Under the pieces are notes generated by a model that did no database searches, was not told where the DNA came from, and was given only the letters and a program-made list of their open reading frames with translations. Both the position numbers and the translations under genes were made by a program. This document shows positions 6,260-54,284 of a DNA stretch of 64,000 nt, piece by piece. This DNA comes from Candidatus Binatia bacterium. Lineage in GTDB: Bacteria > Desulfobacterota > Binatia > HRBIN30. The stretch is from assembly GCA_038245295.1 (NCBI GenBank), contig JBBRSP010000014.1, forward strand, positions 1 to 64,000. Direction: 5' to 3'. Each line of letters starts with the position of its first letter. Position 1 is the stretch's first letter.

Positions 6260-6357
6260 CTGTGATGGCGCTCGGCACCTTGCGATCCACAATCGGAGCG
6301 CGACGCTCCGCCACGTCTACTGGGGCAGCCACGGTTGGGAACTAGGGAAGGCGGGGC

Positions 6358-7953: not shown

Positions 7954-7965
7954 GGCGGGGGTTGC

Positions 7966-8010
7966 TTGACCCGACCGGGCCGAATCAATAGGTTGGTCAA
8001 GCTTGACCAA
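7966..8010 (+). promoter_or_regulatory. Sigma70-like promoter overlapping an 18-bp palindromic operator
   Basis: TTGACC (7966)-17 bp-TAGGTT (7989); perfect palindrome TTGGTCAAGCTTGACCAA at 7993-8010, just upstream of the antitoxin. Confidence 0.65.
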
Positions 8011-8020
8011 GGGAAGGCAA

Positions 8021-8269: not shown

Positions 8270-8644
8270 ATGAGACTATTGTTGGACACCCACGTGCTGC
8301 TTTGGTGGCTCGCTTCCGGTTCGGCGATTACCAAGTCGGCCCGCTCGGCGATCCGCACCGCCGATGTCGTATTCGTCAGTGCGGCCTCGGCGTGGGAAGC
8401 CTCCATCAAGGCAGCGTTAGGTCGGTTGCGCCTCCCTGAACCCGTATCCGACGCGGTGACGAAGTGTAGCTTCCAGAAGCTGCCCATCTCCTTCGCCCAC
8501 GCGGAGGCAGCAGCGGCCCTGCCGCTCCACCATCAGGACCCCTTCGATCGAGTATTGATCGCACAGGCGCGCCTGGAGAATCTCGTCCTGGTAACCCACG
8601 ACCGGCAACTCAACGCCTACGATGTCGAGATACTATGGACCTGA
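8270..8644 (+). CDS. vapC: VapC-family PIN-domain toxin
   Basis: MRLLLDTHVLLW, SAASAWE and HQDPFDRVLIAQA motifs. Confidence 0.92.
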   Translation: MRLLLDTHVLLWWLASGSAITKSARSAIRTADVVFVSAASAWEASIKAALGRLRLPEPVSDAVTKCSFQKLPISFAHAEAAAALPLHHQDPFDRVLIAQARLENLVLVTHDRQLNAYDVEILWT

Positions 8645-10626: not shown

Positions 10627-10673
10627 GATTGCAAATCAGAACCCAGACCAACCGACAGCACTCAGGAGCACTC

Positions 10674-11435: not shown

Positions 11436-11528
11436 GCCGGAGCGCGCCACTACGTCGCGCCCGGGTGTGGCGATCACAGCAGCAAACAATATCGCGCCGC
11501 GCCGCGTTCCGAGTTAAGGACACAACCA

Positions 11529-24636: not shown

Positions 24637-24755
24637 GGACCCGCCAACTCTCGATCTTCCAGGCTCTTCACGATGGGCACACCATTCGCGTCAACGATCC
24701 GCGACTCACCGTTCGCCCCGTGCGACGCAACGTAGCGCGATACCATCGGCCAGCA

Positions 24756-32887: not shown

Positions 32888-32894
32888 GCGCGCC

Positions 32895-33074
32895 TCAGAA
32901 CAACGTGTAGATGAACGGTCCGAGGGCAGTTCCACCAGCAGTTACCATCAGCCCCCCGAACACGAGAAGGACAAGTACCATCGGAATGAGCCACCACATC
33001 TTGCGTTGCCACAAGAAGCTCATCAATTCTCCGGCGATCCCCGCTCGTTGCCGCACGCTCTCCGTCGTCTTCAT
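32895..33074 (-). CDS. DUF5989-family small membrane protein (59 aa, absent from the ORF track)
   Basis: MKTTESVRQRAGIAGELMSFLWQRKMWWLIPMVLVLLVFGGLMVTAGGTALGPFIYTLF*; AGGAG RBS; characteristic WWLxP and PFIYTLF. Confidence 0.88.
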   Translation of the reverse strand: MKTTESVRQRAGIAGELMSFLWQRKMWWLIPMVLVLLVFGGLMVTAGGTALGPFIYTLF

Positions 33075-33084: not shown

Positions 33085-34275
33085 TTAGGGACGCACCGGC
33101 AACAACCGGTTACGTTCCAGAAAGTCCCTCAAATTAACCGCCGCCAAACGGTGTCCCGCTACCGTCCAATGGCCGTCATGCCGGAAGTGCAACGGCTCCT
33201 GGACGCTCTGCGCCTGCATCTTGAAGATCGGCCCGTACGCCAGGAACGGCACCGCATGATCGGTGCACCACTGCTGCACTCGCTTGTGCGGCGCCTCGAC
33301 GTCCCACGTCTGCCCCTGCATTGCCGGATTCGACTTCAAAATCTCTTGCCATGTATCGGGGTACACCTGATCTCGACTCGACAATATTGCAAGCGCGAAA
33401 GTTGCGCCCGAAGCGGTCACTTCTTGCTGCAACTGGCCCAACATCTTCTCGGTGTGGACCCAGGCGTCCTGCCATTCCGCATCGAGGCTGGGGGCGTAGA
33501 CCCCGTAGTCGGCGGGTACGCCGCCATGGCTCACCGTCGCATGCACGGCATCGCCTTTGAGGAGACCAAGGCGAACCAACTGGGCCGCAAGCTTGGGCTG
33601 CCGCACGATCAGGAACTGACGCAGAAACTGATAGGCGCGCGATCGCGCGATCAGACCGCGCCAGCCCGTGACCTTCGTATCCTTCTTCAACGACACAACT
33701 TTGATGATCGAACCGTCCGGCGCGTACTCGGGCCGCAACGTGTCTTCCAGGGTGGGCGAGTTGTTCTTGATGTCGTTGCCCGGATAGAACGCCAGGATCA
33801 CAAGATTGGGGCGATAGCGCAGCCCCTTGTCGCGAAACATCAACAACGCACCGGCCGTGCCATACCCACTGACGCCGGCGCTCAACACTTCGACGTGTTG
33901 CGGTCGCGGCGTCAAATCGAGCAGGTCTTCCAACTGACGCGGAAAGGTCGCCATCAACGGTACCTGCATTGCCTCGACGAAGGAATCGCCGAGGACGAGG
34001 ATGCGAAACGTCCCGTCCGGTTTGTCGTACGCATGCTCGACGTCACGCAGTCCATGCGTATTGACTTGAACCGGAGTGACGAACTCGCGGTCCTCCTGTG
34101 TCCAGTACCCTTCCTTGCTCGGGATGAGTCGCGAGCCGCGCAACGGATCAGGCTCCCAGAAGCGATCTGGAACGAGGTGCAGAACGCGCACGCCGACTTC
34201 AAGCAGCGCGAGGGGGAACAGCACTCCCATGGTGGCGAGCACAAGGCCCGCAACGAGTTCACGCCAACGCTTCAT
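33085..34275 (-). CDS. Membrane-anchored SGNH/GDSL-family protein
   Basis: N-terminal TM; LGDSF, GVSGYGT, GND and DGHW blocks. Confidence 0.88.
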   Translation of the reverse strand: MKRWRELVAGLVLATMGVLFPLALLEVGVRVLHLVPDRFWEPDPLRGSRLIPSKEGYWTQEDREFVTPVQVNTHGLRDVEHAYDKPDGTFRILVLGDSFVEAMQVPLMATFPRQLEDLLDLTPRPQHVEVLSAGVSGYGTAGALLMFRDKGLRYRPNLVILAFYPGNDIKNNSPTLEDTLRPEYAPDGSIIKVVSLKKDTKVTGWRGLIARSRAYQFLRQFLIVRQPKLAAQLVRLGLLKGDAVHATVSHGGVPADYGVYAPSLDAEWQDAWVHTEKMLGQLQQEVTASGATFALAILSSRDQVYPDTWQEILKSNPAMQGQTWDVEAPHKRVQQWCTDHAVPFLAYGPIFKMQAQSVQEPLHFRHDGHWTVAGHRLAAVNLRDFLERNRLLPVRP

Positions 34276-36053
34276 GTCGGCTTGCGAACGATCGTGTTGC
34301 CAAGGAGGAGCGCGTCCATCCCGCTGCGGGCGAAGGTGCTGAACGCGTCGGCCGGCGTCGTCACGATGGCCTCGCCCTTCAGGTTGAACGAGGTGTTCAT
34401 GACACACGGTACGCCGCTCGATTGGCCAAACCGCTCGATCATCTTGTAATACAGCGGGCTCTCCGCCTTATGCACCGTTTGCAACCGCGCTGAGTTGTCG
34501 ACGTGGGTGATCGCCGGCAGTACTTCGCCCTGCCCCGGCTTTACCGGGACGACGAACAGCATGTAGCGGGCTGGGTAGTGCTTCGCCGCGTCGGGCAGAT
34601 CGAAGTAGCGTTCGGCTGCTTCCGCCAGGACCGACGGCGCGAACGGACGAAACGGCTCGCGGAACTTGATCTTGACGTTGACGATCTCCTTCATGTCGGC
34701 ACGCCGTGGATCGGCGATGATGCTGCGCGCGCCCAGGGCTCGCGGGCCCCATTCGAAACGCCCTTGAAACCACCCCAGCACATGGCCTTTGCCGAGATGC
34801 TCGACGACGGCGTCGACCATGTCGTCTTCGCTCGAGTATGTTTGCGCCGGCATGCCACAGGTGCGCGCGAAGTCGGCCGTCTCACCTTCGGTGAAATCCT
34901 GCCCCCAATAGGCGTGCTTCATGATGAAATTACGCGGCTTACCGAGGACCAGGTGATACGCATAGAGGGCCGCGCCGAGAGCTCCACCGCCGTCACCGGC
35001 AGCCGGCTGCACGAACACTTCCTTCATCGGTGTTTCGCGGATGATACGCCCGTTGGCGACACTATTGAGGGCCACACCGCCGGCGAGACAGATCTTGTCG
35101 AGACCCGTCTCCTTGTGGAGATGGCGCACCATCGTCAGAACGATCTCCTCGGTGACCTTCTGGATGCTGGCGGCGATATCGGCGTAGTGCTGATTGCGCG
35201 CACACATTTCCTCGTAGTTCGACGGCTTGTCGCCGAAGTACGATGGGTAACCGGAGGTTTTGGTAAAGAAGAGCCACGATGGATCGCGCGGTTCGCCGAA
35301 CAACTCGACGAACTTCGGCTTGTAGGTCTGGGTCGAGGAGTGATGGAAGCAGAAATAGTCCATGTCGAGCCAGAAACTGCCGTCCGGCTCGACGTGGATC
35401 AGCTTGTAGACCTTGTCCATGTACTTGGGCTCGCCGTAAGGAGCCATGCCCATGACCTTGTACTCACCCTCGTTCACCTCGAACCCGAGGAACGCGGTAA
35501 AGGCGCTGTAGAGCAACCCGATCGAATGGGGGAAACGAATCTCGTTGGTCAGCTTGATCTCGTTACCGCGGCCCACGCCCATCGTCGCGGTTGACCATTC
35601 GCCGACACCATCGACGGTCAGAATCGCTGATTCCTCGAAGGGTGAGCAAAAAAACGTACTGCAGGCATGCGACAGATGGTGTTCGCTGAACAGGATCTTG
35701 TCGGCCGAGATGCCGAGCTCGGAGCGGATGATGTTCTTGACCCAAAGCTTGTCGAGAAACCAGGTCGTCATGGCGTCGCCGAACACCTTCCATGACTTCG
35801 GCACGACTTGCAGGGCCGTCGTCAGGATGCGTTCGAACTTCACGAAGGGTTTCTCGTAGAACACGACGTAATCGAGATCGTTGATACCGATCCCGGCGCG
35901 GTCGAGGCAGAACTGAATCGCCAGCTTCGGGAACCCGGAGTCGTGTTTGTTACGGCTGAAGCGCTCCTCTTCCGACGCCGCAACGAGGACGCCGTCTTCG
36001 ATCAACGCCGCCGCCGCATCGTGGTAAAAGCAGGAAATTCCCAAAATCCGCAT
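34272..36053 (-). CDS. O-carbamoyltransferase (NodU/CmcH/TobZ family)
   Basis: YHDAAA, EEERFSR, HHLSHA, DGVGE, GEYKVMG, EWGPRALG, KFREPFRPFAP and NTSFN motifs. Confidence 0.95.
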   Translation of the reverse strand: MRILGISCFYHDAAAALIEDGVLVAASEEERFSRNKHDSGFPKLAIQFCLDRAGIGINDLDYVVFYEKPFVKFERILTTALQVVPKSWKVFGDAMTTWFLDKLWVKNIIRSELGISADKILFSEHHLSHACSTFFCSPFEESAILTVDGVGEWSTATMGVGRGNEIKLTNEIRFPHSIGLLYSAFTAFLGFEVNEGEYKVMGMAPYGEPKYMDKVYKLIHVEPDGSFWLDMDYFCFHHSSTQTYKPKFVELFGEPRDPSWLFFTKTSGYPSYFGDKPSNYEEMCARNQHYADIAASIQKVTEEIVLTMVRHLHKETGLDKICLAGGVALNSVANGRIIRETPMKEVFVQPAAGDGGGALGAALYAYHLVLGKPRNFIMKHAYWGQDFTEGETADFARTCGMPAQTYSSEDDMVDAVVEHLGKGHVLGWFQGRFEWGPRALGARSIIADPRRADMKEIVNVKIKFREPFRPFAPSVLAEAAERYFDLPDAAKHYPARYMLFVVPVKPGQGEVLPAITHVDNSARLQTVHKAESPLYYKMIERFGQSSGVPCVMNTSFNLKGEAIVTTPADAFSTFARSGMDALLLGNTIVRKPT

Positions 36054-37285: not shown

Positions 37286-38395
37286 TCAGCTCCGCTGCAG
37301 CGCCGGTTCGGCGTGCCGGTTCAAGAGATCACCCACCATCGCTACGGCTCGATCACAGGTGACATCCTCAGAGAGAACAAGCTCGAAACTAGGTACCGCC
37401 GAAGCCAACTCGTCGAGCTGTGTCTCACGCTGCAACATCAGGCCGCTCGGTAGCAGTTGTTCGAGCACCGCGGCGTAAGCGAAATAGCGGCGCAAGTCAT
37501 TGATCAACAGGTCGCCTGAACTGAGGCGATGGCGTGCTTCCCTATCATCGAGTTGGCGCACCATGCTCGGCGCTCCGCGTCGCGGAAAGAGCAACAATGC
37601 CGCGCGACCGCGATCGGCGAGATGTGACGGAGCAACGCGGTAACCGCCACGATGCAAGCCATAGGAATGCGGAATCGCCTCCAGTACCCCGGCCCGCGTA
37701 CCGAGCCAGTCCTGACTGAAGCGATCGAGAAGAATCGGTTCGTGAACCGCCCAGACCTGTGTCGCGTGGTGGAGCACGAAACTGTCCGACAACAGTCGCG
37801 CCCCTTTTTCGGCGCCGAGAGCCACCGTCAGGGTGGACTTGCCGATGCCGCTTGCTCCGGCCAACAGCACCACCTGATCATTCATCAGCGCCGCACCGGC
37901 ATGCAGCGGATGGCGCCCCTGCATGTGTTCGAGCCACCACCAGCACGGGTAGTAGACCAGATAGGCAAGGATCGTCGGGAAGCGGCGGCGGCGCATTACG
38001 TCGCGACGCTGCCACTGGCGCACGCGGCGGATCGTGTCACTCAGACGACTGTTGCCGAGGCGGAAATAGAAGTCGGCTTCGATCTCGAGACGCGCGCCAT
38101 CCCAGGTCAGGCGCAGGAACAGATCGCGCAGGTCGTCGACCCGAAACCAGTGCAGGGTGTTGCCGTAGTGATACAGATCGCGATCGATGCGCAACGCCGC
38201 CGGCGCCACCTTGCGGATCGATTCCGGCGGCTGCCCGTCGTGCCAGCGCAGGCGCGCACAGATCGTTGGGGTCTCCGGTACCTCGGACAACAGGGGCGCG
38301 AGGTGCGACCTGGAATACTCCGTCAGGTCATCGGCATCCGACTCGAAGAGAAACGGAACGCCCGCCAACGTGCCGGTGACCGGCTTACGGCTCAT
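37286..38395 (-). CDS. HPr-kinase-like P-loop protein of unknown function
   Basis: LHAGAA..VLLAGASGIGKSTL..LLSD. Confidence 0.65.
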   Translation of the reverse strand: MSRKPVTGTLAGVPFLFESDADDLTEYSRSHLAPLLSEVPETPTICARLRWHDGQPPESIRKVAPAALRIDRDLYHYGNTLHWFRVDDLRDLFLRLTWDGARLEIEADFYFRLGNSRLSDTIRRVRQWQRRDVMRRRRFPTILAYLVYYPCWWWLEHMQGRHPLHAGAALMNDQVVLLAGASGIGKSTLTVALGAEKGARLLSDSFVLHHATQVWAVHEPILLDRFSQDWLGTRAGVLEAIPHSYGLHRGGYRVAPSHLADRGRAALLLFPRRGAPSMVRQLDDREARHRLSSGDLLINDLRRYFAYAAVLEQLLPSGLMLQRETQLDELASAVPSFELVLSEDVTCDRAVAMVGDLLNRHAEPALQRS

Positions 38396-40803
38396 GCCGC
38401 CGCCCCGGCTGACGGACCACCGCGTCCCGTCCAGCGTTGGGCGGCGTGCTGCATGGCGCGTCCGGCGGGCGCCAGACGCGCGTAGGCGCCACGTGCCAAG
38501 CGCGTCACCGGACCGATACTGCGATGCGCATAGGTGTACGGAACCTCGGTTGGGCCAAAGGTGCGCTTGAATCGCGCCACACTCTCGATGCCGGCACCGA
38601 CCATGTCGTACGTGGCAATCCCTTGTGAGCAGGCCCAACGAATGACCTCCCAGTGCAATAGATTGTTGGGACGCGCATCCTGCGTTGCTGAGTCGCTGGC
38701 ACCGTCGAGGTAGTAGATGCCGCGTGAGTCGTACGGGAAGATGCCGCCCGAAATCAGCTTGTCATCGAGATAGGCGAAGAACACTTTGACGGGCCCGCCT
38801 TTGGCGGCCAGTTCACCGATGGCGCGATAATCGTCCTTGCTGAGCCACGGTGGGCGATTGGATTTGGCGAAGACCTGTTGCGCCATCTCCCAATAGCGAT
38901 CGAGATTCGCGAGCAGGTCACCCTCGACGATCGTCACGCCGCTGTTCTGTCCCTTGCGCACGGCGCGCCGGCACGACGAGCTCAGCGAGTCGCGCCACAA
39001 GGCTTCTTCACCCGGGCGCATGTCCAACAGGAACGTCGCTCGCTGCTCGGTTTCGAAGCCGGCTTCCGCCAGCGCCCCCGTCTCCACTTCCTTGGCGAAG
39101 CGAATCTCGATGTAGGAAACCTTCTGGGCGCGCAAATGCCGGACCACCTCGCGCATGACGCTCGGCAAGAGCGCCGGGGCAACCATCGGCCCGAGGTACG
39201 GCGTGCCCGCTTGTGGCGGTGGCGAGGCGGCGATCTTGAACACACCTTTGCGAAACAGGAACAGAGGCAGTAGGCCGGCTGGTCGCTCCCCATCCAAGAT
39301 GCGTAGCAGCTTGAGCTCGGCACGGCGTTGCGTCGCTACCAATTGCAGCCACGCCAGACGATGAAAGACGCTGGCGTCAGGAAACGCCGCGAGCAACGTA
39401 TCCCACTCGCTCTCTTCGCACGGCAGTAGACGGATCACCTGTGGCGCGACGGTCTTGGTGACCGTGGTCGCTTTCGACACCAGGCCGGTGGAACGCAACC
39501 GCTTCTCCGTTGCCCCGCGTACGGCGGCCCAGATGAACTCCACGTCGGATCGCCGCGGAATCAACACTTCGCGAAAACCCATGCCGGAGTCGCGCCGGAA
39601 GGCAATCAGCAACATCACCGCGGCAAGCGTATAGGCCATGCTCGTAGCGATCGCCGCACCAACGATGCCGTAGCGCGGGATCAGTAGGATGTTAAACAAG
39701 ACGTTGCTGACCAGGGCGACCATGCCAGACGAGATGTTGATGGCCTGCTTATTCCGACTCGTGAAATCACGCGACAAGATCGTGAACACGGACATCATGA
39801 CCGCGCCGAGCATGGCGTAGCTGAGGGGCCGCGCCGCGGCGGCAAAATCGGCGCCATACCAGAGCGGTATCAAGAACGGCCCACCAATCGCGGCAACCAT
39901 GCCGCTCGTGGCGGTCAGAAGAATGGTGCCGCGGCTCGCCTGCGCCGTGAGCGCATGCACGTCGGACTTATCCAGCGAGGCCATCTTGGGATAGATGACC
40001 CAGCCAATGGCTTGCGGGATCTCGAGAACAATCTCTGTAAAGTGGAGGGCGAGGCTGTAGAAGCCAGCCTGCGTGGCCCCGAGAAAGTACGACACGATGT
40101 AGACGTCGCTGCGGAACAGCATGTGCATCGTCAGGATCTGCGCGTACGACAACAAACCGAAACTCATCTGACGGCCAAGCAGCGCACGGTCTGGGCGCAG
40201 GCCGAACGGGATCATCTGACGGGTCGTGTAGAGCAAGGACAACACGACGATTGTCGTCGTTGCGGCGTAGATCCAACTGGCATTCCACAGCGTCAGTCCA
40301 ACAGTGAAACGCGCTCCGACAACCATCACCATGACCAGCGCTGCGCCGGCCAAGGTACGCCGATTGTAGAGCGAGAAGTTCCCCTTGGCCTGCAGGACAC
40401 CCCAGAAGAAGTTGTCCACCAGCAGCAGCGGTACGCGCCAGAGGGCCAGCAGAAGGGCCCACCCCGGCACGCCGCCGAGGATCGTACTCAACAAGGCGTC
40501 GCGTAGGAACCAGGTAGCGGCGCAGACGACGAGACCGAGCACCATCCCCAGGAAGAGCGAGTTGGTGGCAACGCCGGAGAGCGAGGCGCCCTCGCGCCGC
40601 ACACAGTACACGTTGGCCGGAGTGATCCCGAGCTTGGTAATCGTCAGGAGTGTCGTCGGCAGCAATGTGACGAGCGCGAACAGACCGCGTTTGTCCGGCC
40701 CGAGGCCGCGCGCCAAGAAAATCGATGTCAACGTGCCCAACAACGCGACGCCGGCGCGCGAGCCCAGTAGGCCGAGAACATCGGAGGTCATGCCACGTTT
40801 CAT
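38392..40803 (-). CDS. wzx: Wzx-type polysaccharide flippase fused to a C-terminal FemAB-like GNAT domain
   Basis: About 12 TM segments with ARGLGP and LLIPRYGIVGAAIAT, then SVFHRLAW, RRAVRK, NNLLHWEVI, YDMVG and FKRTFG. Confidence 0.85.
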   Translation of the reverse strand: MKRGMTSDVLGLLGSRAGVALLGTLTSIFLARGLGPDKRGLFALVTLLPTTLLTITKLGITPANVYCVRREGASLSGVATNSLFLGMVLGLVVCAATWFLRDALLSTILGGVPGWALLLALWRVPLLLVDNFFWGVLQAKGNFSLYNRRTLAGAALVMVMVVGARFTVGLTLWNASWIYAATTTIVVLSLLYTTRQMIPFGLRPDRALLGRQMSFGLLSYAQILTMHMLFRSDVYIVSYFLGATQAGFYSLALHFTEIVLEIPQAIGWVIYPKMASLDKSDVHALTAQASRGTILLTATSGMVAAIGGPFLIPLWYGADFAAAARPLSYAMLGAVMMSVFTILSRDFTSRNKQAINISSGMVALVSNVLFNILLIPRYGIVGAAIATSMAYTLAAVMLLIAFRRDSGMGFREVLIPRRSDVEFIWAAVRGATEKRLRSTGLVSKATTVTKTVAPQVIRLLPCEESEWDTLLAAFPDASVFHRLAWLQLVATQRRAELKLLRILDGERPAGLLPLFLFRKGVFKIAASPPPQAGTPYLGPMVAPALLPSVMREVVRHLRAQKVSYIEIRFAKEVETGALAEAGFETEQRATFLLDMRPGEEALWRDSLSSSCRRAVRKGQNSGVTIVEGDLLANLDRYWEMAQQVFAKSNRPPWLSKDDYRAIGELAAKGGPVKVFFAYLDDKLISGGIFPYDSRGIYYLDGASDSATQDARPNNLLHWEVIRWACSQGIATYDMVGAGIESVARFKRTFGPTEVPYTYAHRSIGPVTRLARGAYARLAPAGRAMQHAAQRWTGRGGPSAGAAA

Positions 40804-42047
40804 GTCGTGGGTCCCTCGGATGCAGTCGTCATCGTCGATTGGCGCATCACCTCCGGCAGCAGCGCCGCGGCCGGAGGCGGCTTGTGGCGCAAGCGACGGA
40901 AGAAACTCAATGTGTCGTGCACCAATGCTAAACTCCAGTCGCCTGGTTGCCGAATCGCGGACACTTTTTCCTTATTGACCAACAGCGTATCGATTAGCCG
41001 CCTCTCGTCGGCGCGCTGATTGAGCTTCACGTGATGTTCGAAGACAAAGAAGCGCGCATCGTTTTGTGGGCTTTCGAGCAACTCCGGCAAGCGCGGATCA
41101 CCGGTCAGATCGTAGTATTGAATGAGGGGCAAATTGACTCCGGAGAATGCGGATAGCTTCACCCACAACCACGAACGCCCATTGATCTCGAGTAGTTTGT
41201 ATTCGTCGTCCCGCGCATCGTACTTGAACTCGACCTGACTAATGCCTTGGAAACCCGCCGCATCGAGGAGGCGCCGCGCCGCGTCGAACACACGCGGCGG
41301 CAGGGTCATCGTCTCGGAGACACTCGCCATGCCGTGGTAGTAGGGATATTGTGTGCGTTTGCGTCCCGAATACGAACGCATGACCTTGCCGTCGCGGCCG
41401 CTGTAGGACCCGATCGTGTAGAGCTGGTCCGGTTCGCCCGGGATGTTCTCGGCCACCTGAAACTCGCGGCCGGCAAACTCTGCGGCGATCTCTGCCAGGG
41501 TGGCGCGCAACTGTTCCGGGGTTGCCAGGATGCGCAAGCGAAACACTTGATCACCGGCGGTCTCGGCACGTGAGGACGGCTTGATGATCAGTGGAAAGCG
41601 AAAGCCGTCGACGTCGGGAGTTGTACCCGCCGCGAACCGAACACAGCGCGGAATTGCCACACCGCTACGCTCGGCCAACTCATACTGCCAGTTCTTGGCA
41701 AAGATCTGCGTGCCGATCTGCGGCGCCGCCGGGACGTGGTAGCGCGCCGACAGGCGGTCGTAATTGAGAATCAGATCTTCCAGATCAGCGTCCGTGCTCG
41801 GGAACAGGATGCCGCGTCCCTCGAAGCGCTGCGCCAGACGAAGCAACGCATCCGTCAGCGTCTCACCGCGGCGGGGGTCGAAAGTCACCCGCTGCTTGGC
41901 AAACTGCGAGAAGCGTCCGTACGTCGGCGGCCATCGACGGTCGACCGTGATCATGTCCACGCCACCCAACTGCAGGGCATGGATGATCCCGATCCCAGCC
42001 GTCTCGGCGTTTACAACAACCGCCGGATTGCGGAGTGGTCGAGACAT
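40800..42047 (-). CDS. ATP-grasp carboxylate-amine ligase (D-aspartate-ligase-like)
   Basis: FPSTD, FPLIIKP, ENIPG, QVEFKYDARD and LLEINGR..GVNLP motifs. Confidence 0.85.
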   Translation of the reverse strand: MSRPLRNPAVVVNAETAGIGIIHALQLGGVDMITVDRRWPPTYGRFSQFAKQRVTFDPRRGETLTDALLRLAQRFEGRGILFPSTDADLEDLILNYDRLSARYHVPAAPQIGTQIFAKNWQYELAERSGVAIPRCVRFAAGTTPDVDGFRFPLIIKPSSRAETAGDQVFRLRILATPEQLRATLAEIAAEFAGREFQVAENIPGEPDQLYTIGSYSGRDGKVMRSYSGRKRTQYPYYHGMASVSETMTLPPRVFDAARRLLDAAGFQGISQVEFKYDARDDEYKLLEINGRSWLWVKLSAFSGVNLPLIQYYDLTGDPRLPELLESPQNDARFFVFEHHVKLNQRADERRLIDTLLVNKEKVSAIRQPGDWSLALVHDTLSFFRRLRHKPPPAAALLPEVMRQSTMTTASEGPTT

Positions 42048-42053
42048 TGGCGA

Positions 42054-42809
42054 CTACTTCATCAAAAGCGTATCGGCCCGCAGGCCCTGGCGGATCGTCT
42101 CCAGCGAGATCACTTCGTTGGGCGGGATGTTGCCGAGGTTGACGTTGCAACCGAAGTGCTTGACCATCCAAACCTGCTGCACCTTCTGAGGAGCCTCAAA
42201 GATGAGGCGGCTCGAGTCGATTTGAACCTCGATCTCCTCGATCAGTCCGTGACGAATCTCGCCGCTCTCGCGATACAGGCCCACCGTACCGGATTCGCGG
42301 CCTTCCGTGACGACTTTTGCGGCGCCCGCTTCGAGCTCAGCCTTGATCTGCTTCACCCAGCGGTACGGCGCGACGACAACCGCGCTGTCCTTGCTGCCGA
42401 CCTCGGAAAACACCTTGAAGTCCTTGGCAAGGCGCTCGATGTACCCGAGCTTTTGGGCCTCGTTCATTTCGACGACACCGTCTGAAACCTCTACCAGACG
42501 TAGGCCCTTGTCCTTGAGGAAGGCGATGTACTCGTCGACCTTGCCGCGATGCACCGCCAACTCGAACATACTGCCGCCGCAGCACACTTCGACACCGTGT
42601 TTCTGCAACAGCGCGATCTTGGCGTCGAGATTCCCGACCACAACCGCCGTCGCCCAGCCGAACTTGACGATGTCCACGTACGGCGCGGCCACCTCCATCA
42701 TCTGCTCGATCTCGGCGATGGACATGCCTTTATCGAGCACGTGTGTGAGGCCCTTCTCGCGTGGTCGCAGGGTCCTGGTTGGATCACCGAAGAGGTCCTG
42801 AATACTCAT
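42054..42809 (-). CDS. comA: (2R)-phospho-3-sulfolactate synthase
   Basis: PREKGLTHVLDKG, VDIVKFGW, VEVSDG, SEVGSK, TEGRESG, IFEAP and VNLGNI..LETIRQGLRADT motifs. Confidence 0.92.
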   Translation of the reverse strand: MSIQDLFGDPTRTLRPREKGLTHVLDKGMSIAEIEQMMEVAAPYVDIVKFGWATAVVVGNLDAKIALLQKHGVEVCCGGSMFELAVHRGKVDEYIAFLKDKGLRLVEVSDGVVEMNEAQKLGYIERLAKDFKVFSEVGSKDSAVVVAPYRWVKQIKAELEAGAAKVVTEGRESGTVGLYRESGEIRHGLIEEIEVQIDSSRLIFEAPQKVQQVWMVKHFGCNVNLGNIPPNEVISLETIRQGLRADTLLMK

Positions 42810-42813
42810 AGTC

Positions 42814-44322
42814 TCACCATGCCTTGCCGATTCGTTGGGCGATCGCCGCGCGCAGCACTTCTGGGAAGCGCGTCGCCGATGCCTGCCTCTCGATCGCGCC
42901 GGTGTCCCGGCTTACTTGCTTCTGTAATTCGTTGGCCATGCGCCGCACTTCGCGCGGCGCACAACCACCGCGTGTGGCGCGTTGATGGACGATCTGGGCG
43001 GCGTCTAGCTCGCGCACCAGATCGCGCACGCGAGTCTTGAGGGCGCGCCCCGTGCGCTCCTTGAAACACCGGCTGAGTACGTCGGCCTCTGGTTGTTGAA
43101 CTTGTCGTTGCACCAACTCGCGCACTACGGCCCCAACAATCTCGTGCGCCGTGCGCGCATCGACACCCTCGTGCTGCAGCAGTAGGTCGGCGAGCTCAGT
43201 CGCCCAGGTTCCACCCGAGCGCGCCTGCTGCTCCAGGCGTGCGACGTCGAACTGCGCCTGCGCCACGACTTCGCCGAGCAGGTTCAGTATGGCGCGCACG
43301 GTTGCGGTGGCACGCGGCAACAGGTCATAGGCCGTGTTACGGTTGTCGAGCTGCCCCGAGGGCGTCTGATTGGTGGTGATGACGCTCACCAATTGCCCAA
43401 CCAACTCACGGGCTTTGCCACGGATGTGCGACAGCGCGTAGGGATTTTTCTTGTTCGGCATGATCACGCTGGTGCGGCAGTGGCGATCAGCCAGTTCCAC
43501 GAACCCGAATTCCTCGGTACTCCAGATCTGCAATTCCTCGGCGAGCCGGTCAGCGGTGGTGGCAAGCGACACCAGGATCGCCATGGCATTGATCGGCACA
43601 TCCGTCTGCCACATCGCGTCGCGGTTGTGTTCGGTCAGGGAAGAAAACCCGAGCAGTCGGCACAACCGGGCTCGATCCAAGGGCAGCAGCGAACCGTTTG
43701 TGCTGGCGCAACCGGCGGGTGAGGCGTTCAGCCCGGTTATCTCCTGACGCAGGCGCGATAGATCGCGAGCCAACGGATAGGCAAAACCCAGCAGGTAGTG
43801 GCCCAGCGTCGTTGGGTGGGCATGCTGAAGGTACGTGAAATCGGGCATGAGCGAGTCGACGTGACGGCGCGCCACATCGGTGATGGCATCGACGCAGCTC
43901 GAAACGTCATGCGCCAACGTCCGCATCGCGCCGCGCAGGTGGATGAGCCAGGCAATCGTCAGGGCCTCGCGGCGTGCCCGGCCGGCATGTATCCAACCAG
44001 CGGTCGCGCCCAGGCGTGCCTCGAGCGCGGCATCACGGTTGTTGTAGAGGTCACCCCATTTGGCATCGAGGCGAAGGGCCATCAGCCCGCCTTTGTGCAA
44101 GTCCACCAGGGCCCGCAGCAACTGGTGACCGGGCTTCTCCGGGATCACACCCTGCTCGATGAGCATCAGGGCGTGCGCCAGATCGGCGTAGCTCAGTCCG
44201 TCGAACAACACGTCGGCATATTCGAGCTCGGTGCGAAACGTGTCGACCAATGCCGGCGATGGTGGTTCGACGAGTCGCGAGCCGACTCCAAGCTGATGTT
44301 TACGCTGACGTTGAACGGCCAT
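42814..44322 (-). CDS. Aspartase/fumarase-superfamily lyase, argininosuccinate-lyase-like but non-canonical
   Basis: IHAGRARRE, MPDFTYLQHAHP, TSVIMPNKKNP and RTAHEIVG motifs. Confidence 0.85.
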   Translation of the reverse strand: MAVQRQRKHQLGVGSRLVEPPSPALVDTFRTELEYADVLFDGLSYADLAHALMLIEQGVIPEKPGHQLLRALVDLHKGGLMALRLDAKWGDLYNNRDAALEARLGATAGWIHAGRARREALTIAWLIHLRGAMRTLAHDVSSCVDAITDVARRHVDSLMPDFTYLQHAHPTTLGHYLLGFAYPLARDLSRLRQEITGLNASPAGCASTNGSLLPLDRARLCRLLGFSSLTEHNRDAMWQTDVPINAMAILVSLATTADRLAEELQIWSTEEFGFVELADRHCRTSVIMPNKKNPYALSHIRGKARELVGQLVSVITTNQTPSGQLDNRNTAYDLLPRATATVRAILNLLGEVVAQAQFDVARLEQQARSGGTWATELADLLLQHEGVDARTAHEIVGAVVRELVQRQVQQPEADVLSRCFKERTGRALKTRVRDLVRELDAAQIVHQRATRGGCAPREVRRMANELQKQVSRDTGAIERQASATRFPEVLRAAIAQRIGKAW

Positions 44323-44331
44323 TTTCGTCTC

Positions 44332-45531
44332 TCAGTGCAGCACAAACTCGGCCGCCGACGCGCCGGCGATACGGCCGTGAACCAACGAATCGGTGATGCC
44401 GTTTCCCATGAGCCGATTGCGACCGTGTAGTCCGCCGGTCATCTCGCCGGCCAGGAACAATCCCGGAATCGCCGAGGCGCAGCGCGGCGTGATCCGAAAT
44501 CCACCAAGGTGATAGTGCAGGAACGGGTAGATCAGGATGTCCTGTCCGAGCCGACCGGTACGCTCGAGGTACTGGTGAACTTTAGGGAAGACTCCGACGA
44601 GTGTCGACTCCGGCACGTCGCCGATCGTTAGCCACACGCCCGGACCGTCGTCGCTCTCCACCATGTCGCCCGAAGCCAGCAGCTCGAACATATGCTGCGT
44701 CAACGCGTAGCGATCTTGACCGGGTTCGCCGACTACGCGGCGATGGCGGTCCAGAATCCGCACCGGATAGTTCACGATGCTTTCCGGCACACACTTCCCG
44801 ATGTCATCGCGCTGCGAACCAACGATCCCAAAGGGTTGATACTGAAAGAATTCGGCGTGTACTGTTTCCAATCCCAACGCCTTCAGCAGGTCGATCATCC
44901 GATGATTGATGTTCTCTGGATTGGTGGTCGGTTGATGGCGGCGTTGTGATTCATGAAATGTCATGCCGCCGGTGCAGACAACGACGCTGCGAGCCTCGAT
45001 CTCGGAATCCTCGCCCTTGGGATCGCGCAAGCGTAGGACAAAGGAATGCTGACGCACGTCGATGGCAACAACTTCACGGTTTGCCATGGGTTCGACACCA
45101 GACTCCTGCATACGCGAACGCAGCACCTTGATGATCGCCGGGCCAATCTGATCCTTGACGGAAACGATGCGCGGCTCACTGATGCCGCCGGCCCGACGGC
45201 GTACAAGGCGACCATCTTGATCGCGGTCGAAGTCGAGCCCCCAACCTTCGAGAAGCGCAACGGTGGGCGCGACATGCGTCACAAAATTCCGCACCAGCTC
45301 GAGGTCGAGATCGATCCGCGCCGAACGCACGATATCGTCCACGAAGCTTTGCAGCGAATGTTCCGCAGGCAACGGCAACTGCAGACCGCCTTGCGCCATG
45401 CGCGAGTTCGACTTCCCAAGCGGGCCGTCGGAAACCACGGCACAATCGGTGCGTTCCACGGCGGCGATCGCCGCCATCATGCCGGCCGCTCCGCTTCCAA
45501 TTACGACAACGTTGCGCACGACACCAACCAA
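44332..45531 (-). CDS. FAD-dependent flavoprotein of the fumarate reductase/L-aspartate oxidase family lacking the C-terminal helical domain
   Basis: GSGAAG, SNSRMAQGG, CTGG, HYHLGG and GLFLAGE..GLHGRNRL motifs; 399 aa. Confidence 0.85.
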   Translation of the reverse strand: MVGVVRNVVVIGSGAAGMMAAIAAVERTDCAVVSDGPLGKSNSRMAQGGLQLPLPAEHSLQSFVDDIVRSARIDLDLELVRNFVTHVAPTVALLEGWGLDFDRDQDGRLVRRRAGGISEPRIVSVKDQIGPAIIKVLRSRMQESGVEPMANREVVAIDVRQHSFVLRLRDPKGEDSEIEARSVVVCTGGMTFHESQRRHQPTTNPENINHRMIDLLKALGLETVHAEFFQYQPFGIVGSQRDDIGKCVPESIVNYPVRILDRHRRVVGEPGQDRYALTQHMFELLASGDMVESDDGPGVWLTIGDVPESTLVGVFPKVHQYLERTGRLGQDILIYPFLHYHLGGFRITPRCASAIPGLFLAGEMTGGLHGRNRLMGNGITDSLVHGRIAGASAAEFVLH

Positions 45532-47295: not shown

Positions 47296-48366
47296 CTACG
47301 CGGCCGCCAACGATGCCGGACGCATTGCGACGCCCGCTCCGGCCCAGACCTTTTCCAAGAGCGCCACTGCCTCGCGTCCCTCCATGGCCGAGACCGGAGG
47401 CGGCTCGCCATGCGCCAGGGCGCGATAAAGAGCCCGGAAGTGCATCCCCATGCCCGGGTAGAAGCGCTGTGTGCCGGTAACGAAGCCGATGCCGTTCACC
47501 ACGGTCGCGCGCATCAGCTGGCTCGCCTCCTCTAGATTCGGCAGCACTTTGCCGACGAGTTTGGGAGCCTTACGGGTCTGGCGCGTCACCAATGTCATGT
47601 TGTTCAAATTCACTTCGGCGGTGATCTTGGAGCCGAACAATGTGACGCGATTCTGCGGCGGACGGGTGTTGGTTGTAATCGTCAAACTCCCCAAGGCATT
47701 GGCCCCATCCACAACGGCGCGCACCTCTTCGAGACTGCCCTGCGGCGTCTTACGAGCGACAACATGTACGTCGGCGATGCTGCCCACCAGGCCTCGCAGC
47801 AAGTAGATGGGATGTGGCGCCAGATCGTACAAGATGCCGCCCGGCAGAGATGCCTTCCAGTGGCCGGGATCAGGTAGATCCGCTTCCCCGACCGCCGCAC
47901 CGGCGAAGACGTCGACACCCACCAGATCTCCGAGCTTGCCACTCTCCAACAATCCGCGGGCCGCCTGCATCACGGGGTCGAACCAGCGATTGTGATCGAC
48001 CGTCAGGAAGCGGTTGGCGCTCTTGGCGGCGGCAATCATCGCGTCGGCCTCGGCCGCCGTGAGAGACATGGGCTTCTCGACCACAACGTGCAGACCGGCA
48101 GCCAACAATTCCATCGCGAGTTGGGCATGGCTGGCAGGCGGGGTCAGGAGGTGGACGACATCGGGCTGGCCGGCAGCCAGCAACTCCTCGATGTCGGCGT
48201 AACTCGGAACCTGCCAGCGGCTCGTGAAGCGCTCGCGACTTTCACGACTTAGGTCGCAGGCCCCGATAAATTCCACCTCCGGCACCTGACGCAGGTAACC
48301 AGCGTGTACATCAGCGATCCGCCCGCACCCGACAAGGGCGACGCGGAAACGCGCAGAAGCAGTCAT
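47296..48366 (-). CDS. Gfo/Idh/MocA-family oxidoreductase
   Basis: VGCGRIA, TPPASH, VEKP and DLAPH motifs. Confidence 0.9.
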   Translation of the reverse strand: MTASARFRVALVGCGRIADVHAGYLRQVPEVEFIGACDLSRESRERFTSRWQVPSYADIEELLAAGQPDVVHLLTPPASHAQLAMELLAAGLHVVVEKPMSLTAAEADAMIAAAKSANRFLTVDHNRWFDPVMQAARGLLESGKLGDLVGVDVFAGAAVGEADLPDPGHWKASLPGGILYDLAPHPIYLLRGLVGSIADVHVVARKTPQGSLEEVRAVVDGANALGSLTITTNTRPPQNRVTLFGSKITAEVNLNNMTLVTRQTRKAPKLVGKVLPNLEEASQLMRATVVNGIGFVTGTQRFYPGMGMHFRALYRALAHGEPPPVSAMEGREAVALLEKVWAGAGVAMRPASLAAA

Positions 48367-50897: not shown

Positions 50898-52094
50898 TCA
50901 GCGCCGATTCGCACCAAGTATCCTCCGTAGGGCGTCGGCAACATGGGCTACGTCATCATCGGTCATGAGCGTAAAGAACGGCAACGATAGAATCGTCTCG
51001 GCGGCGGCGGACGCCACCGGTAGATCTCCCAGTTCGAGCCCGAAGGCATCGCGATAGAACGAGTGCATATGCAGCGGGATGAAGTGCACCTGGCTGCCAA
51101 TGCCGACGGCCTTGAGCTCTTCGATCACGGCATCTCGATGGATGGTGAGACGCTCCGGCCGCATGCGGATTACGTAAAGGTGCCAGGCGTGCTCGACGTC
51201 CGGCCGGGTTACCGGCAACTCGATCGTATCGACATCCGCCAGATACCGGTTGTAGAGCGCGGCGATCTCCTGGCGGCGGCGGTGAAGATCGGGCAGGCGG
51301 CGCAGCTGGACGATGCCCATCGCCGCGTTGATGTCGGTCATGTTGTACTTGAAGCCCGGATAGGAGACGTCGTACCGCCAGGACCCCTCGCTGCTGTAGC
51401 GGCGCCAAGCATCTCGGCTCATGCCGTGCAAACGACGTGTTCGCATGCGGTCGGCCCATTCCTGGTTCTCGGTGGTCAACATGCCACCCTCGCCCGTGCA
51501 CAGGTTCTTGGTGGCGTAGAAGCTGAACGCCGTAATGTCGCCGATGCTGCCGATATCGCGGCCGCGGTATTTTGCCGGCAGCGAATGTGCGGCATCTTCG
51601 ATCACGACCAGACTCTTGGCCTTGGCAATTTCGAGGATGGGCGCCAGGTCGACTGGATGCCCCGTATAGTGAACCGGCACAATCGCACGCGTCCGCGGCG
51701 TGATCTTTCGTTCGATATCGGCGGGGTCGATGTTGAGCGTGTCTGGCTGAACATCGGCCAAGACTGGCTTGGCGCCGGCATGAATGATCGTCGCACCCGT
51801 CGCCGTAAACGTCATTGTTGTGGTGATCACCTCGTCGCCGGCATCCAGATCCAGGGCGTCGAGCGCCAGATGCAACGCGGAGGTACAGGAGTTGACCGCG
51901 ATGGCGTTGCTGGCGCCAAAGCGAGCCGCAAATTGTTGCTCGAACTCGTGGGTTCGGGGTCCCACTGTGATCCAGCCGGAGCGCATCGTTTCGACAACGG
52001 CAGCAATCTCTTCTTCCCCGAGATCCGGTTTGTAGAAGGGTATTTGCCGCTGCACGGCCGGGGGTGGGGCGACCACCGCGCTGGGTTTGCTCAC
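50898..52094 (-). CDS. DegT/DnrJ/EryC1/StrS PLP-dependent sugar aminotransferase
   Basis: NSCTSALHL, EDAAH, SFYATKNL..GEGG and GFKYN motifs. Confidence 0.94.
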   Translation of the reverse strand: MSKPSAVVAPPPAVQRQIPFYKPDLGEEEIAAVVETMRSGWITVGPRTHEFEQQFAARFGASNAIAVNSCTSALHLALDALDLDAGDEVITTTMTFTATGATIIHAGAKPVLADVQPDTLNIDPADIERKITPRTRAIVPVHYTGHPVDLAPILEIAKAKSLVVIEDAAHSLPAKYRGRDIGSIGDITAFSFYATKNLCTGEGGMLTTENQEWADRMRTRRLHGMSRDAWRRYSSEGSWRYDVSYPGFKYNMTDINAAMGIVQLRRLPDLHRRRQEIAALYNRYLADVDTIELPVTRPDVEHAWHLYVIRMRPERLTIHRDAVIEELKAVGIGSQVHFIPLHMHSFYRDAFGLELGDLPVASAAAETILSLPFFTLMTDDDVAHVADALRRILGANRR

Positions 52095-52137: not shown

Positions 52138-52935
52138 TCATCGTTGTGCGCCTACCGCCGCACGCGGCACGTCGGCACCGGCAACCACCTCCGTCGCTTG
52201 ACCGCGCACGAACACGCCCAGCATATCGGCCTTCAGGACATCCAGGCCCAGGCGATCAATCAGGCGCTCGAAGAGTAGAGAGAGCGCGTACAAGGGGCGC
52301 ACAAAACCGAACGAGTGTGCCAGGGCGAGGCGTTCGAGCCGATCTTCACGGAAGTTGGAGCTCGCCGCCAGGCGTCGCAGCGCCGCGGCGGAATTGGCGC
52401 GGTAGAAGGTCGGGAACAGCTCCTCTTCAAAATCCTGCCATTCGCCGCGCGCGAAGTAATACGAGACCTTCTTGAACAGTAGGTGGAAGCGGTAGGGGGT
52501 CAACGACGCGACGATCATCGCATAGTTGAAGCGATTGGGAGTGAAGGCAATGAAACGCCCACCCGGGCGGCTGATGCGTGCGACTTCACGAAACACAGCG
52601 TCCGGATCCTCCAGGTGTTCAAACACCATCGCTGCCGTCACCAGGTTGAAGGTGCCGTCGCGGAACGGCAACGCCGCCGCGTCACAGACCACCAGATTGC
52701 GGATGCTCGTATGCTTGGACAAGTACGGGTCGCGATCACAACCAACCGCCAGGGTGGCGCGCCGCGGTAGATCCTGGTTGAGGTCGTCATCGGGACAGAT
52801 CTTCTTGCCGCAGCCGATATCGAGCCAGCGGGTCTGGGTTCCGACAGTGGCGTCGAGGAGCCCCTGGTAGATCGCCTTCGGAGACTTGTAGTCCGGATAG
52901 AAGCGCCGAATCATTGCGGCGTTGCGGCCCAACAT
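52138..52935 (-). CDS. Class I SAM-dependent methyltransferase
   Basis: LDIGCG, LPFRDGTF, VFEHLEDP and FPTFYRAN motifs; start inferred. Confidence 0.85.
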   Translation of the reverse strand: MLGRNAAMIRRFYPDYKSPKAIYQGLLDATVGTQTRWLDIGCGKKICPDDDLNQDLPRRATLAVGCDRDPYLSKHTSIRNLVVCDAAALPFRDGTFNLVTAAMVFEHLEDPDAVFREVARISRPGGRFIAFTPNRFNYAMIVASLTPYRFHLLFKKVSYYFARGEWQDFEEELFPTFYRANSAAALRRLAASSNFREDRLERLALAHSFGFVRPLYALSLLFERLIDRLGLDVLKADMLGVFVRGQATEVVAGADVPRAAVGAQR

Positions 52936-54284
52936 CAGGCGCGTCCTCCCACCGCCGCAAGACGCTCGGAGGCGACAGTCCACTCGGGCACGAGCATTTG
53001 AATTAGGCGTTGTACGTTGGCGTCGCCGTCGAACTCGGCGAGGATGCGTCGCCGGGCGGCACGCCCAAGGCGTTGTCGTTCCTCTCGACTTTGCGCCAGC
53101 CGCCGTACCGCGTCGACGATCGGCTCGACGGCATTCGGCTCCACCAGAAAGCCGCACTGGCTGTCGTCCACCAACTCTTCCGCGCCGGGAATACGCGAGG
53201 CAATCACCGGCAACCCCATTGCCATGGCTTCGACGATGACATTGGCGATCACGTCGCGGCGACGTGATCGGCCGGCCAACTCGCTTGCCAGGACAAACGC
53301 GTCACTCATCGCCAACATCTCGACCAATTCTTTGTGAGGCCGTCCGCCGAGCAGGCGAATGTGGTCCTGTAGGCCGAGCTCGCCGATCTGCCGTTCGAGG
53401 TTAACGCGTTCGACACCTTCGCCGACAATCCAACAGCTGACGTCGACACCTTCGCGGCGCAGTCGGGCACATGCTTCGACCAACAGATGCATGCCCTTGT
53501 AGCGTTCGAGTTGCCCGCAGGAGCCGATGACAAGACGATCTGACAATTTGCCCTCTTGGCTCACCGGGGTGAAGCGCGAGATATCAACGCCGTGATAGTT
53601 GACGTGGATCTTCGCCTGCAGCGGGGCGGCAACCAGTTTTGACAAGAAACGCTGATTCGTTTTGGCACATGTGACCACGAACTCAGCCGCGGCAATCTTC
53701 GCCGGCAACATGCGCTGGGTCATGTAGATATCGTAGGCGTGGGCGCTGATGCTGAACGGTAGGCCAGAAAGCCGATTCACCAAGAAGGCGACCGTCGCCG
53801 GGTATGTCGCCCAGTGCACGTGCAGATGGGTAATCCCGTCCTTCTGCAAACGCTCGTTGAGGTGGATCGCCGTCGGGATGAGCGCCAACGATTTGATGAG
53901 ATACGGAAAGGGATGTCCATTGAGCCAGCCACGCAAGCGATTGTAGAGCGTGGCGCGGCTACGTGCGGCGGTCGACTCTTGCTGCGGCGCCTCGGCGCCG
54001 GTACGCCACGCACTGACGACGGCGGCGATAAGTCCGAAAAACCTCCGCGGCGAGCGAACGAGCAAACCGGCGGTTGCCGCCAATGCCTCAGCCGACGCCA
54101 TCGCCGGCAGGTAGGCGACTGTCTTGGCGATAGCGGCGCCCTCGGGTTGTTGGCGCTCGGTACCGGGCCACATCGAGTAGATCAGCGGCTGGACACCGTG
54201 GCGCTTGAGTCCCAGGACCTCCCAGAGCACGAAGGTCTGGTGAAACACCGGAAAGGCTGGGAACAAGTAGCCGAGCTTCGTCAC
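52935..54284 (-). CDS. Glycosyltransferase family 4 (WcaL-like)
   Basis: FP..QTFV, HLHVHWA, SAHAYDI, YHGVD and IVEAMAMG motifs. Confidence 0.9.
   Translation of the reverse strand: MTKLGYLFPAFPVFHQTFVLWEVLGLKRHGVQPLIYSMWPGTERQQPEGAAIAKTVAYLPAMASAEALAATAGLLVRSPRRFFGLIAAVVSAWRTGAEAPQQESTAARSRATLYNRLRGWLNGHPFPYLIKSLALIPTAIHLNERLQKDGITHLHVHWATYPATVAFLVNRLSGLPFSISAHAYDIYMTQRMLPAKIAAAEFVVTCAKTNQRFLSKLVAAPLQAKIHVNYHGVDISRFTPVSQEGKLSDRLVIGSCGQLERYKGMHLLVEACARLRREGVDVSCWIVGEGVERVNLERQIGELGLQDHIRLLGGRPHKELVEMLAMSDAFVLASELAGRSRRRDVIANVIVEAMAMGLPVIASRIPGAEELVDDSQCGFLVEPNAVEPIVDAVRRLAQSREERQRLGRAARRRILAEFDGDANVQRLIQMLVPEWTVASERLAAVGGRA

Follow-up and report, generated by a model that had tools for sequence, protein, structure and literature searches.

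A five-gene cassette in a polysaccharide operon

The window analysed here, a stretch of 64,000 nucleotides from a Candidatus Binatia bacterium (contig JBBRSP010000014.1; genome completeness 96.6%), contains a cassette of five genes at 38392..45531 that is predicted to make a C3 sulfonate from phosphoenolpyruvate (PEP) and to attach it to a surface glycan. An earlier, sequence-only reading had described these genes as tightly coupled and as lying inside a Wzx/Wzy cluster, and both observations hold. All five open reading frames that it had placed there are intact on the minus strand, with intergenic distances of 9, 4, 6 and -4 bp in the order flavoprotein, lyase, comA, ATP-grasp, wzx-GNAT; the flavoprotein starts at TTG 45531 or at a GTG a few codons further on. 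The cassette belongs to a set of about 37 glycan genes that all point the same way over some 48 kb, from 63992 at the window end to about 15830, and include wza, wzz/wzc, a kinase, a wzy-like gene, a phosphoglycosyltransferase (PGT) gene, DegT, several GT4 and GT2 genes and a carbamoyltransferase. Wzx, Wzy-like protein, Wzz/Wzc, Wza and an initiating PGT, the components by which we recognise a Wzx/Wzy polysaccharide locus, are thus encoded in one cluster. The cassette genes have the same GC and GC3 as their neighbours, and the nearest named relative with an identical gene order, L009, is also labelled Candidatus Binatia.

Table 1. Coordinates of the cassette genes and of other features in the window
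Feature	Position	Strand	Remarks
FAD_binding_2 flavoprotein	44332..45531	-	399 aa; FAD_binding_2 4.9e-42; proposed sulfoacrylate reductase
XcbC-like phosphosulfolactate phosphate-lyase (aspartase/fumarase superfamily)	42814..44322	-	502 aa; Lyase_1/ASL_C2
ComA/XcbB phosphosulfolactate synthase	42054..42809	-	251 aa; PF02679 2.6e-85
ATP-grasp carboxylate-amine ligase, uncharacterised family	40800..42047	-	415 aa; proposed sulfo-acyl ligase
Wzx flippase fused to FemAB-like GNAT domain	38392..40803	-	803 aa; Wzx is the N-terminal ~440 aa
GT4 glycosyltransferase	52935..54284	-	candidate transferase or acceptor-builder for the sulfo-acylated sugar
DegT aminotransferase	50898..52094	-	could supply an amino sugar in this genome; not conserved next to the cassette
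Gfo/Idh/MocA oxidoreductase	47296..48366	-	could make an amino sugar together with DegT
HprK-related kinase-like gene	37286-38638		TIGR04352 weak; after wzx-GNAT; kept in L009, L068, L111
NodU-type carbamoyltransferase and SGNH protein	34272-36053, 33085-34407		same operon as the cassette
Right-handed beta-helix protein	28460-32935		1491 aa; in the glycan operon; might be a lyase or a binding protein for polysaccharide
Two pairs of sulfatase/alkaline-phosphatase-superfamily genes (PF00884, PF01663)	23254-26021 and 61007-64000		flank the glycan operon

The four enzymes

The first two enzymes resemble those that open bacterial coenzyme M (CoM) synthesis. XcbB and XcbC of Xanthobacter have been shown to turn PEP and sulfite into phosphosulfolactate and then sulfoacrylate (PMC9457059, represented here, like every report cited below, by an excerpt). 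The ComA of the window matches PF02679 over its full length (286 bits against a cut-off of 25.2, residues 11-246) and is 36% identical to XcbB; on the archaeal model TIGR03849 it scores 253.6, below the cut-off of 280. The lyase reaches 501.7 bits on the XcbC model NF052535, whose curated cut-off of 575 is passed by the CoM-type gene of another genome of the class (G268), and 279.4 on the argH model. It is 43% identical to Xanthobacter XcbC, as against 31% to the genome's own ArgH, and its best match among 72,556 plasmids is the XcbC of pXAUT01; this copy and two others inspected among the top six plasmid matches lie in CoM operons. In a quick IQ-TREE maximum-likelihood tree of 52 rows, for which the careful search was incomplete and long branches were flagged, the lyase groups with three XcbC proteins and apart from ArgH (branch support 95). 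It also carries XcbC-type motifs, namely an Arg-rich GR.RRE, the signature Ser and a Tyr where ArgH has His. We rejected ArgH as its identity: the Tyr and the Arg-rich motif stand in place of the T-H-L-Q His and of R-S-R-N-D, and a true ArgH is encoded on contig C26 (620 bits). Judged by model, tree and motifs alike, the lyase is XcbC-like and not ArgH, as had been proposed.

The remaining enzymes of CoM synthesis were not found in the genome, just as they had not been seen in the window. Searches of the 96.6%-complete assembly gave no match to XcbD above its cut-off and none to DUF7714 (which we label XcbA-like from its gene position), to an XecA fragment or to ComB (PF04029), so that the archaeal-type ComABC route is not represented either. 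The sole XcbE-like match is a pyridoxal-phosphate (PLP) enzyme, 34% identical, on another contig.

The flavoprotein has the FrdA/NadB fold without the C-terminal helical domain. Its predicted structure (pLDDT 94) matches the flavin adenine dinucleotide (FAD) and capping domains of FrdA with a TM score of 0.89, and its 399 residues cover only the first 415 or so of FrdA. It belongs to a family of proteins of about 400 residues, with 179 matches at E <= 1e-40 among 8000 scored candidates; labels among the matches listed include Binatia, Gammaproteobacteria, Dormibacteraeota, Myxococcota and Acidimicrobiia. Residue counts were taken from the 114 proteins longer than 370 residues among the best 120 of these 179. 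The proton-donor Arg274, together with Glu250, His339 and Arg373, is invariant in all 114, at positions that we take to correspond to Arg287, Glu245, His355 and Arg390 of FrdA. The other carboxylate site is remodelled: where FrdA presumably has His232 and Thr244, His has become Gln in 105 of the 114 and Thr has become Pro in every one. This Gln/Pro pattern recurs in 26 of 26 metagenome copies long enough to align; a Bacteroidota copy (L011) has kept the His alongside the Pro. The position of the covalent-FAD His is Asn in 113 of the 114 homologues, and the one to which we assign the number and role of NadB Glu121 is Ala in 111.

Two familiar identities were considered for this protein and set aside. 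As a NadB, it would fall far below the TIGR00551 cut-off (its best NCBIfam score, to nadB, is 150 bits against 452.75), it has Ala, Gln and Pro at the Glu121 and His/Thr positions, and a true nadB lies on contig C3 (593 bits). As an SdhA or FrdA, it would lack both the covalent-FAD His, replaced by Asn, and the C-terminal helical domain, and would have one carboxylate site changed; an SdhA-type gene lies on contig C9. What the family residues do show, with motif I and the proton-donor Arg and Glu kept and motif II changed, is the pattern of an alkene-acid reductase, which agrees with the class assigned to the protein in the sequence-only reading. According to a preprint on acrylate reductase, it is this very motif that determines specificity among reductases of fumarate analogues, and a changed C1-carboxylate motif marks reductases of other alpha,beta-unsaturated acids (bioRxiv 2022.01.20.477176); the residue pattern here fits a reductase of such a non-fumarate acid. 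Because this pattern is found beside a gene whose product would form sulfoacrylate, a sulfoacrylate reductase is the simplest reading of the flavoprotein, as we infer it from residues and context; sulfoacrylate is not among the substrates reported for FAD_binding_2 alkene-acid reductases in the excerpt of that preprint. A fused electron-transfer flavoprotein gene found upstream in family f3 was considered as an electron donor and dropped, since it also flanks HAD-type loci and is not adjacent to the cassette of the window.

The Pfam match of the ATP-grasp protein is weak (2.9e-6), and its fold is supported by AlphaFold/Foldseek and by profile comparison. All Foldseek matches to the model (pLDDT 90) are ATP-grasp proteins, at identities of 18% or less. 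The best profile match among solved structures is 2pn1 (7.6e-13), with no close solved or characterised relative, and the ESM Atlas returned only generic carboxylate-amine ligase clusters. K118, K156, E200 and R291 are invariant in the 24 aligned rows, and the conserved Lys, Glu and E-x-N-x-R motifs of the superfamily are present.

Conservation of the cassette and its variants

We surveyed 301 genomes of the class, the window's own included; the tallies for ComA and the flavoprotein also count the unpublished G177. ComA is present in 59 genomes, the XcbC-like lyase in 33, all of them within those 59, and the flavoprotein in 10, every one of which has ComA. From 55 of the 59 genomes 56 comA regions were taken, omitting G000, G177 and two weak partial matches, and loci from other searches were added. 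The neighbourhood set comprises 93 regions, with seven duplicates and the unpublished L012 and L013 removed, and 89 of these have an anchor gene. Kin are not independent in the locus counts, which describe patterns rather than statistics. Of 55 comA regions from the class, 46 have an ATP-grasp gene no more than 10 kb away; among the other nine, five run into a contig end, three hold divergent comA paralogues and one is an operon of the CoM type. Because the genome holds only one member of this ATP-grasp family, such a pairing goes beyond chance.

The neighbourhoods fall into four arrangements. In arrangement A, that of the window, comA, lyase, flavoprotein and ATP-grasp occur together at 19 distinct loci, in an order shuffled in at least three ways; Wzx is nearby in 15 and Wzx or a glycosyltransferase (GT) in 17, the two exceptions being a decayed copy and a short contig. 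The four enzymes are therefore conserved together, usually beside wzx or a glycosyltransferase gene. Arrangement B (comA, lyase and ATP-grasp) is found at 22 loci, with a GT in 9; they include L068, which has a flavoprotein remnant. Arrangement C, in which ComB accompanies comA and ATP-grasp, accounts for 9 loci (Wzx in 5, GT in 7), and arrangement D, in which comA stands with HAD and D-2-hydroxyacid dehydrogenase genes, for 8 (ATP-grasp in 7, Wzx in 3); the genomes with arrangement D gave no lyase or flavoprotein match. Because ComA and the ligase form a constant core while the middle enzymes are swapped, the substrate of the ligase would be a C3-sulfonate acid.

The ligases themselves bear on this point. 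Those of types A and D form one clade, from which the B and C types are separate; the ligases of the flavoprotein-free loci make up a clade at about 25% identity. Three columns divide 16 A ligases, from the lyase-plus-flavoprotein module, from 7 D ligases, from the HAD-plus-dehydrogenase module: column 207 (Asp in A, Ser or Thr in D), column 240 (Met or Val against Asp, Ser or Glu) and column 294 (Leu, Phe or His against Ser), which lies three residues past the conserved catalytic Arg. A fourth column, 391, is likewise disjoint and falls within the variable tail. When labels were shuffled 2000 times without regard to kinship, one strictly invariant column came up in 4 of the shuffles. We take the region of position 294 to be the one that lines the carboxylate pocket in biotin carboxylase, and the split there fits a methylene at C2 in the A substrate and an oxygen in the D substrate. 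Taken together, the three-column difference suggests that the modules deliver different substrates. In the tree the D ligases fall at three separate positions, and an approximately unbiased (AU) test does not reject a single clade (p 0.142); the idea of convergent residues was dropped after this test. The loci L068 and L110 add an exosortase-associated acyl-CoA ligase and a PLP decarboxylase to the cassette, whose ATP-grasp ligase has His at column 294.

The same three enzymes recur in a second lineage (L119, L120, L122, L123, L130) with an unrelated ATP-grasp subfamily, beside GT2, PMT and ABC-transporter genes, and at a divergent marine locus (L134) with wzx, a sulfotransferase, a deacetylase and a wzy-like gene. 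A Bacteroidota locus has ATP-grasp, flavoprotein and lyase genes among DegT, GT2 and PAPS reductase genes, and its comA is on a different contig. Beyond this class the cassette occurs sporadically and is rare: of 351 Bacteroidota genomes only the seed gave an XcbC-like match, and of 350 from Gammaproteobacteria two did, the seed and the unpublished G694, whose match lies above the XcbC cut-off. Among metagenome loci the flavoprotein is adjoined by lyase or comA in 22 of 32. Three copies of the cassette (L088, L068 and L094; L088 is a decayed A) are decaying through stops, frame breaks and deletions, showing that it is gained and lost as an accessory unit. In family f9, ComA, an XcbC-like lyase and ATP-grasp occur without wzx (for example at L052, L058, L059, L070-L074 and L079-L082), often near DUF218, PP2C or sulfotransferase genes; an XcbC-like match is present in 19 of its 20 genomes, and the trio would make sulfoacrylate for a core product. 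The genomes of L097 and L098 (G237, G002) have 6 and 8 divergent paralogues of the ComA family, some of them arranged in tandem, and these are accompanied by neither lyase nor ATP-grasp.

Of the glycan genes around the cassette, wzx and the GT4 gene travel with it: orthologues of the GT4, at 41-44% identity, adjoin wzx in other copies. The fusion of Wzx to GNAT is real, since a relative has the same fusion (799 aa, 62% identity). The Wzx part is conserved with the cassette; the fusion is confined to close relatives, and the GNAT domain is probably a separate modification. Only one of the 19 four-gene loci (two with the longer L009 copy) has DegT within 10 kb of comA; DegT genes are common in general, and all five relatives checked have them elsewhere in the genome. 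We rejected DegT and GNAT as fixed partners of the cassette. The sequence-only reading thus stands in its lyase identity, its flavoprotein class and its four conserved enzymes, and the sequence findings that it had named as counting against it, such as a grouping of the lyase with true ArgH or a failure of the four genes to recur together, were not obtained. Its DegT-derived amino sugar as the acceptor is a guess that the neighbourhoods do not support, its Wzx-GNAT fusion is lineage-specific, and the cysteate route that it had offered as an alternative is disfavoured.

Other genes of the operon may act on the same polymer. The NodU-type carbamoyltransferase and the SGNH protein point to additional decorations of the glycan, and the flanking PF00884/PF01663 genes may be glycan-modifying transferases or hydrolases. 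At 5099-13289, a cluster of acyl-CoA dehydrogenase, carboxylase and AtuA genes resembles those for acyclic terpene utilisation and has a PIN-domain gene inside it.

A proposed sulfonate pathway and its alternatives

On balance, though with no more than modest confidence, we think that the cassette produces a C3 sulfonic acid and links it to a surface glycan exported by Wzx, passing from PEP through phosphosulfolactate, sulfoacrylate and 3-sulfopropionate to an amide. ComA would almost certainly join sulfite to PEP to give phosphosulfolactate, by homology to XcbB and ComA; the sulfite could come from an APS/PAPS (adenylyl or phosphoadenylyl sulfate) reductase, which is encoded on another contig (C36). 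The lyase would then very probably remove phosphate, as shown for XcbC, to leave sulfoacrylate, the sulfonate analogue of fumarate. The flavoprotein is predicted to reduce the C=C bond of sulfoacrylate, with the conserved His/Arg site binding the carboxylate and the remodelled Gln/Pro site the sulfonate, and 3-sulfopropionate is probably the acid that is ligated. Finally, the ATP-grasp enzyme would phosphorylate the single carboxylate to an acyl phosphate and couple it through an amide bond to the amine of a sugar, either in a nucleotide sugar or in a lipid-linked repeat unit built by the conserved GT4 and exported by Wzx. Ligation to a glycan seems probable to us, and the product would be an N-(3-sulfopropionyl) glycan.

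A broader proposal, which we make tentatively and hold rather less firmly, is that sulfo-acylation of surface glycans is modular, with ComA and ATP-grasp as a fixed core, interchangeable middle enzymes that set the acyl group and a ligase pocket tuned to match. XcbC with the sulfoacrylate reductase would yield 3-sulfopropionyl, as in this window; XcbC alone would yield sulfoacryloyl, a reactive Michael acceptor; ComB would yield sulfolactyl; and HAD with D-2-hydroxyacid dehydrogenase would yield sulfolactyl or sulfopyruvoyl.

Several observations weigh against the proposed pathway. The lyase score of 502 lies under the curated XcbC cut-off of 575, and with DegT at 1 of 19 loci the cassette has no conserved gene to supply an amine. 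Only 1 of the 22 loci of arrangement B has Wzx nearby, which means that a Wzx polymer is not necessarily what the trio serves. Shared ancestry may account for the ligase residue split, as the AU test allows, and one locus, L045, carries both A and D modules. The one characterised capsule ATP-grasp that we found, Cj1438, activates a sugar carboxylate, which is the opposite polarity (PMC11800379). Lastly, seven low-GC metagenome homologues of the flavoprotein have no comA or lyase in view, and the six that are long enough to align retain the same motif. The neighbours at these loci (L124, L126-L129, L131, L136) include aldehyde dehydrogenase, sulfatase and CoA-transferase genes, and the proteins are possibly catabolic 3-sulfopropionate enzymes.

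The same sulfonate chemistry could serve a lipid, a protein glycan or a small solute, which would make the position in a glycan operon incidental. The f9 trio, near-universal in its family and mostly without wzx, is in keeping with this, as are several second-lineage loci with PMT-type rather than Wzx neighbours; but Wzx lies within 10 kb in 15 of 19 four-gene loci despite their shuffled order, among them a gammaproteobacterial locus and the divergent marine one with its deacetylase and wzy-like gene (L008, L134), and accompanies the cassette, like GT4, as an orthologue. We consider an acceptor of this other kind unlikely. Distinctly unlikely, in our view, is a route through cysteate or sulfopyruvate, in which ammonia would be added to sulfoacrylate, the flavoprotein would act like NadB and the ligase would couple the amine of cysteate to a uronic-acid carboxylate. 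Cj1438, which joins other amines to such a carboxylate, is a precedent for that polarity, nadB is the flavoprotein's best-scoring NCBIfam model, and HAD with a 2-hydroxyacid dehydrogenase, used with the same ligase clade, could reach sulfopyruvate. Set against these points are the Ala at the Glu121 position, the lack of any aminotransferase or second lyase conserved in the cassette, and the three ligase columns that suggest different substrates for the two modules.

It is also conceivable, if very unlikely, that the flavoprotein is a side branch which clears excess electrophilic sulfoacrylate or oxidises scavenged 3-sulfopropionate, sulfoacrylate itself being the acid that is ligated. At 21 loci lyase and ligase occur without a flavoprotein gene, at one more only remnants are left, and flavoprotein homologues exist with no ComA nearby; in addition, the excerpt of PMC11489063 mentions the interconversion of sulfoacrylate and 3-sulfopropionate in a catabolic setting only, with reference to a thesis on the breakdown of 3-sulfopropionate by way of sulfoacrylate. 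Yet the flavoprotein-free loci use a separate ligase clade, and three different arrangements all keep the flavoprotein coupled to the cassette. CoM synthesis, to which the XcbB and XcbC homologues would also belong, is largely refuted by the absences described above and by operons of the true CoM type (L010, L085), which carry xcbD and no ATP-grasp; L085 (G268, same class) and L010 (Anaerolineales) have complete-looking sets of DUF7714, comA, xcbC, xcbD and xcbE-like genes. That housekeeping argH and nadB/sdhA paralogues stand here by chance is scarcely credible: the lyase is marginal at the argH cut-off (279.4 against 279.5), but the true argH, nadB and SdhA-type genes are all elsewhere in the genome and the cassette is conserved across phyla.

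If the proposed pathway is correct, it has consequences for many genomes. comA without the rest of CoM synthesis is found in many bacteria, and the cassette offers such orphan genes a testable role, the de novo supply of C3-sulfonates that decorate surface glycans. It also predicts a new reaction, the reduction of sulfoacrylate by a FAD_binding_2 family, and a biosynthetic source of 3-sulfopropionate. The cell coat would gain a permanent negative charge that sulfatases cannot remove; a modular system would account for many orphan comA genes and open a further way, starting from PEP, to build anionic coats that resist sulfatases. The four enzymes, all of them soluble, lend themselves to reconstitution with PEP and sulfite as starting materials. 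Automatic annotation labels the enzymes argininosuccinate lyase and aspartate oxidase or succinate dehydrogenase, so the system is easy to overlook. We found no description of the cassette in the literature searched, mostly without subscription journals or supplements, and it is a real and conserved, apparently undescribed branch of the Xcb pathway. The first two of its steps have been described before, and taurine provides a known case of sulfonated bacterial glycans (PMC8498110).

The closest known system is XcbABCDE of Xanthobacter autotrophicus Py2 (PMC9457059), which likewise uses ComA/XcbB and then the argininosuccinate-lyase-like XcbC to give sulfoacrylate (36% and 43% identity to the proteins here). 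The cassette lacks XcbD, XcbE and XcbA and has instead a fumarate-reductase-like flavoprotein, an ATP-grasp ligase and Wzx. With the FAD_binding_2 reductases of acrylate, methacrylate and urocanate (bioRxiv 2022.01.20.477176) the flavoprotein shares the carboxylate-binding and proton-donor motifs and a changed C1-carboxylate motif; it differs from them, as far as the excerpt describes them, in its new Gln/Pro motif, in having no fused electron-input domain and in a context that is biosynthetic rather than respiratory. The Campylobacter jejuni capsule amidoligase Cj1438 is also an ATP-grasp enzyme that makes an amide on a surface polysaccharide; it is TupA-like and activates the carboxylate of glucuronate, whereas in the cassette the small acid is the likelier acyl donor, a comparison made by description (PMC11800379). 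The sulfonated peptidylamido-glycan of type B flagellin in Clostridioides difficile likewise bears a C-S sulfonate on an amino sugar through amide bonds, but there the sulfonate is that of a taurine which ends the peptide of a protein glycan, and not a ComA-derived C3 acyl group (PMC8498110). The N-aspartyl amino sugars of O-antigens (PMC10609480) carry a four-atom diacid in amide linkage to the sugar amine; they are sulfur-free, and the proposed 3-sulfopropionyl group would be their sulfonate analogue.

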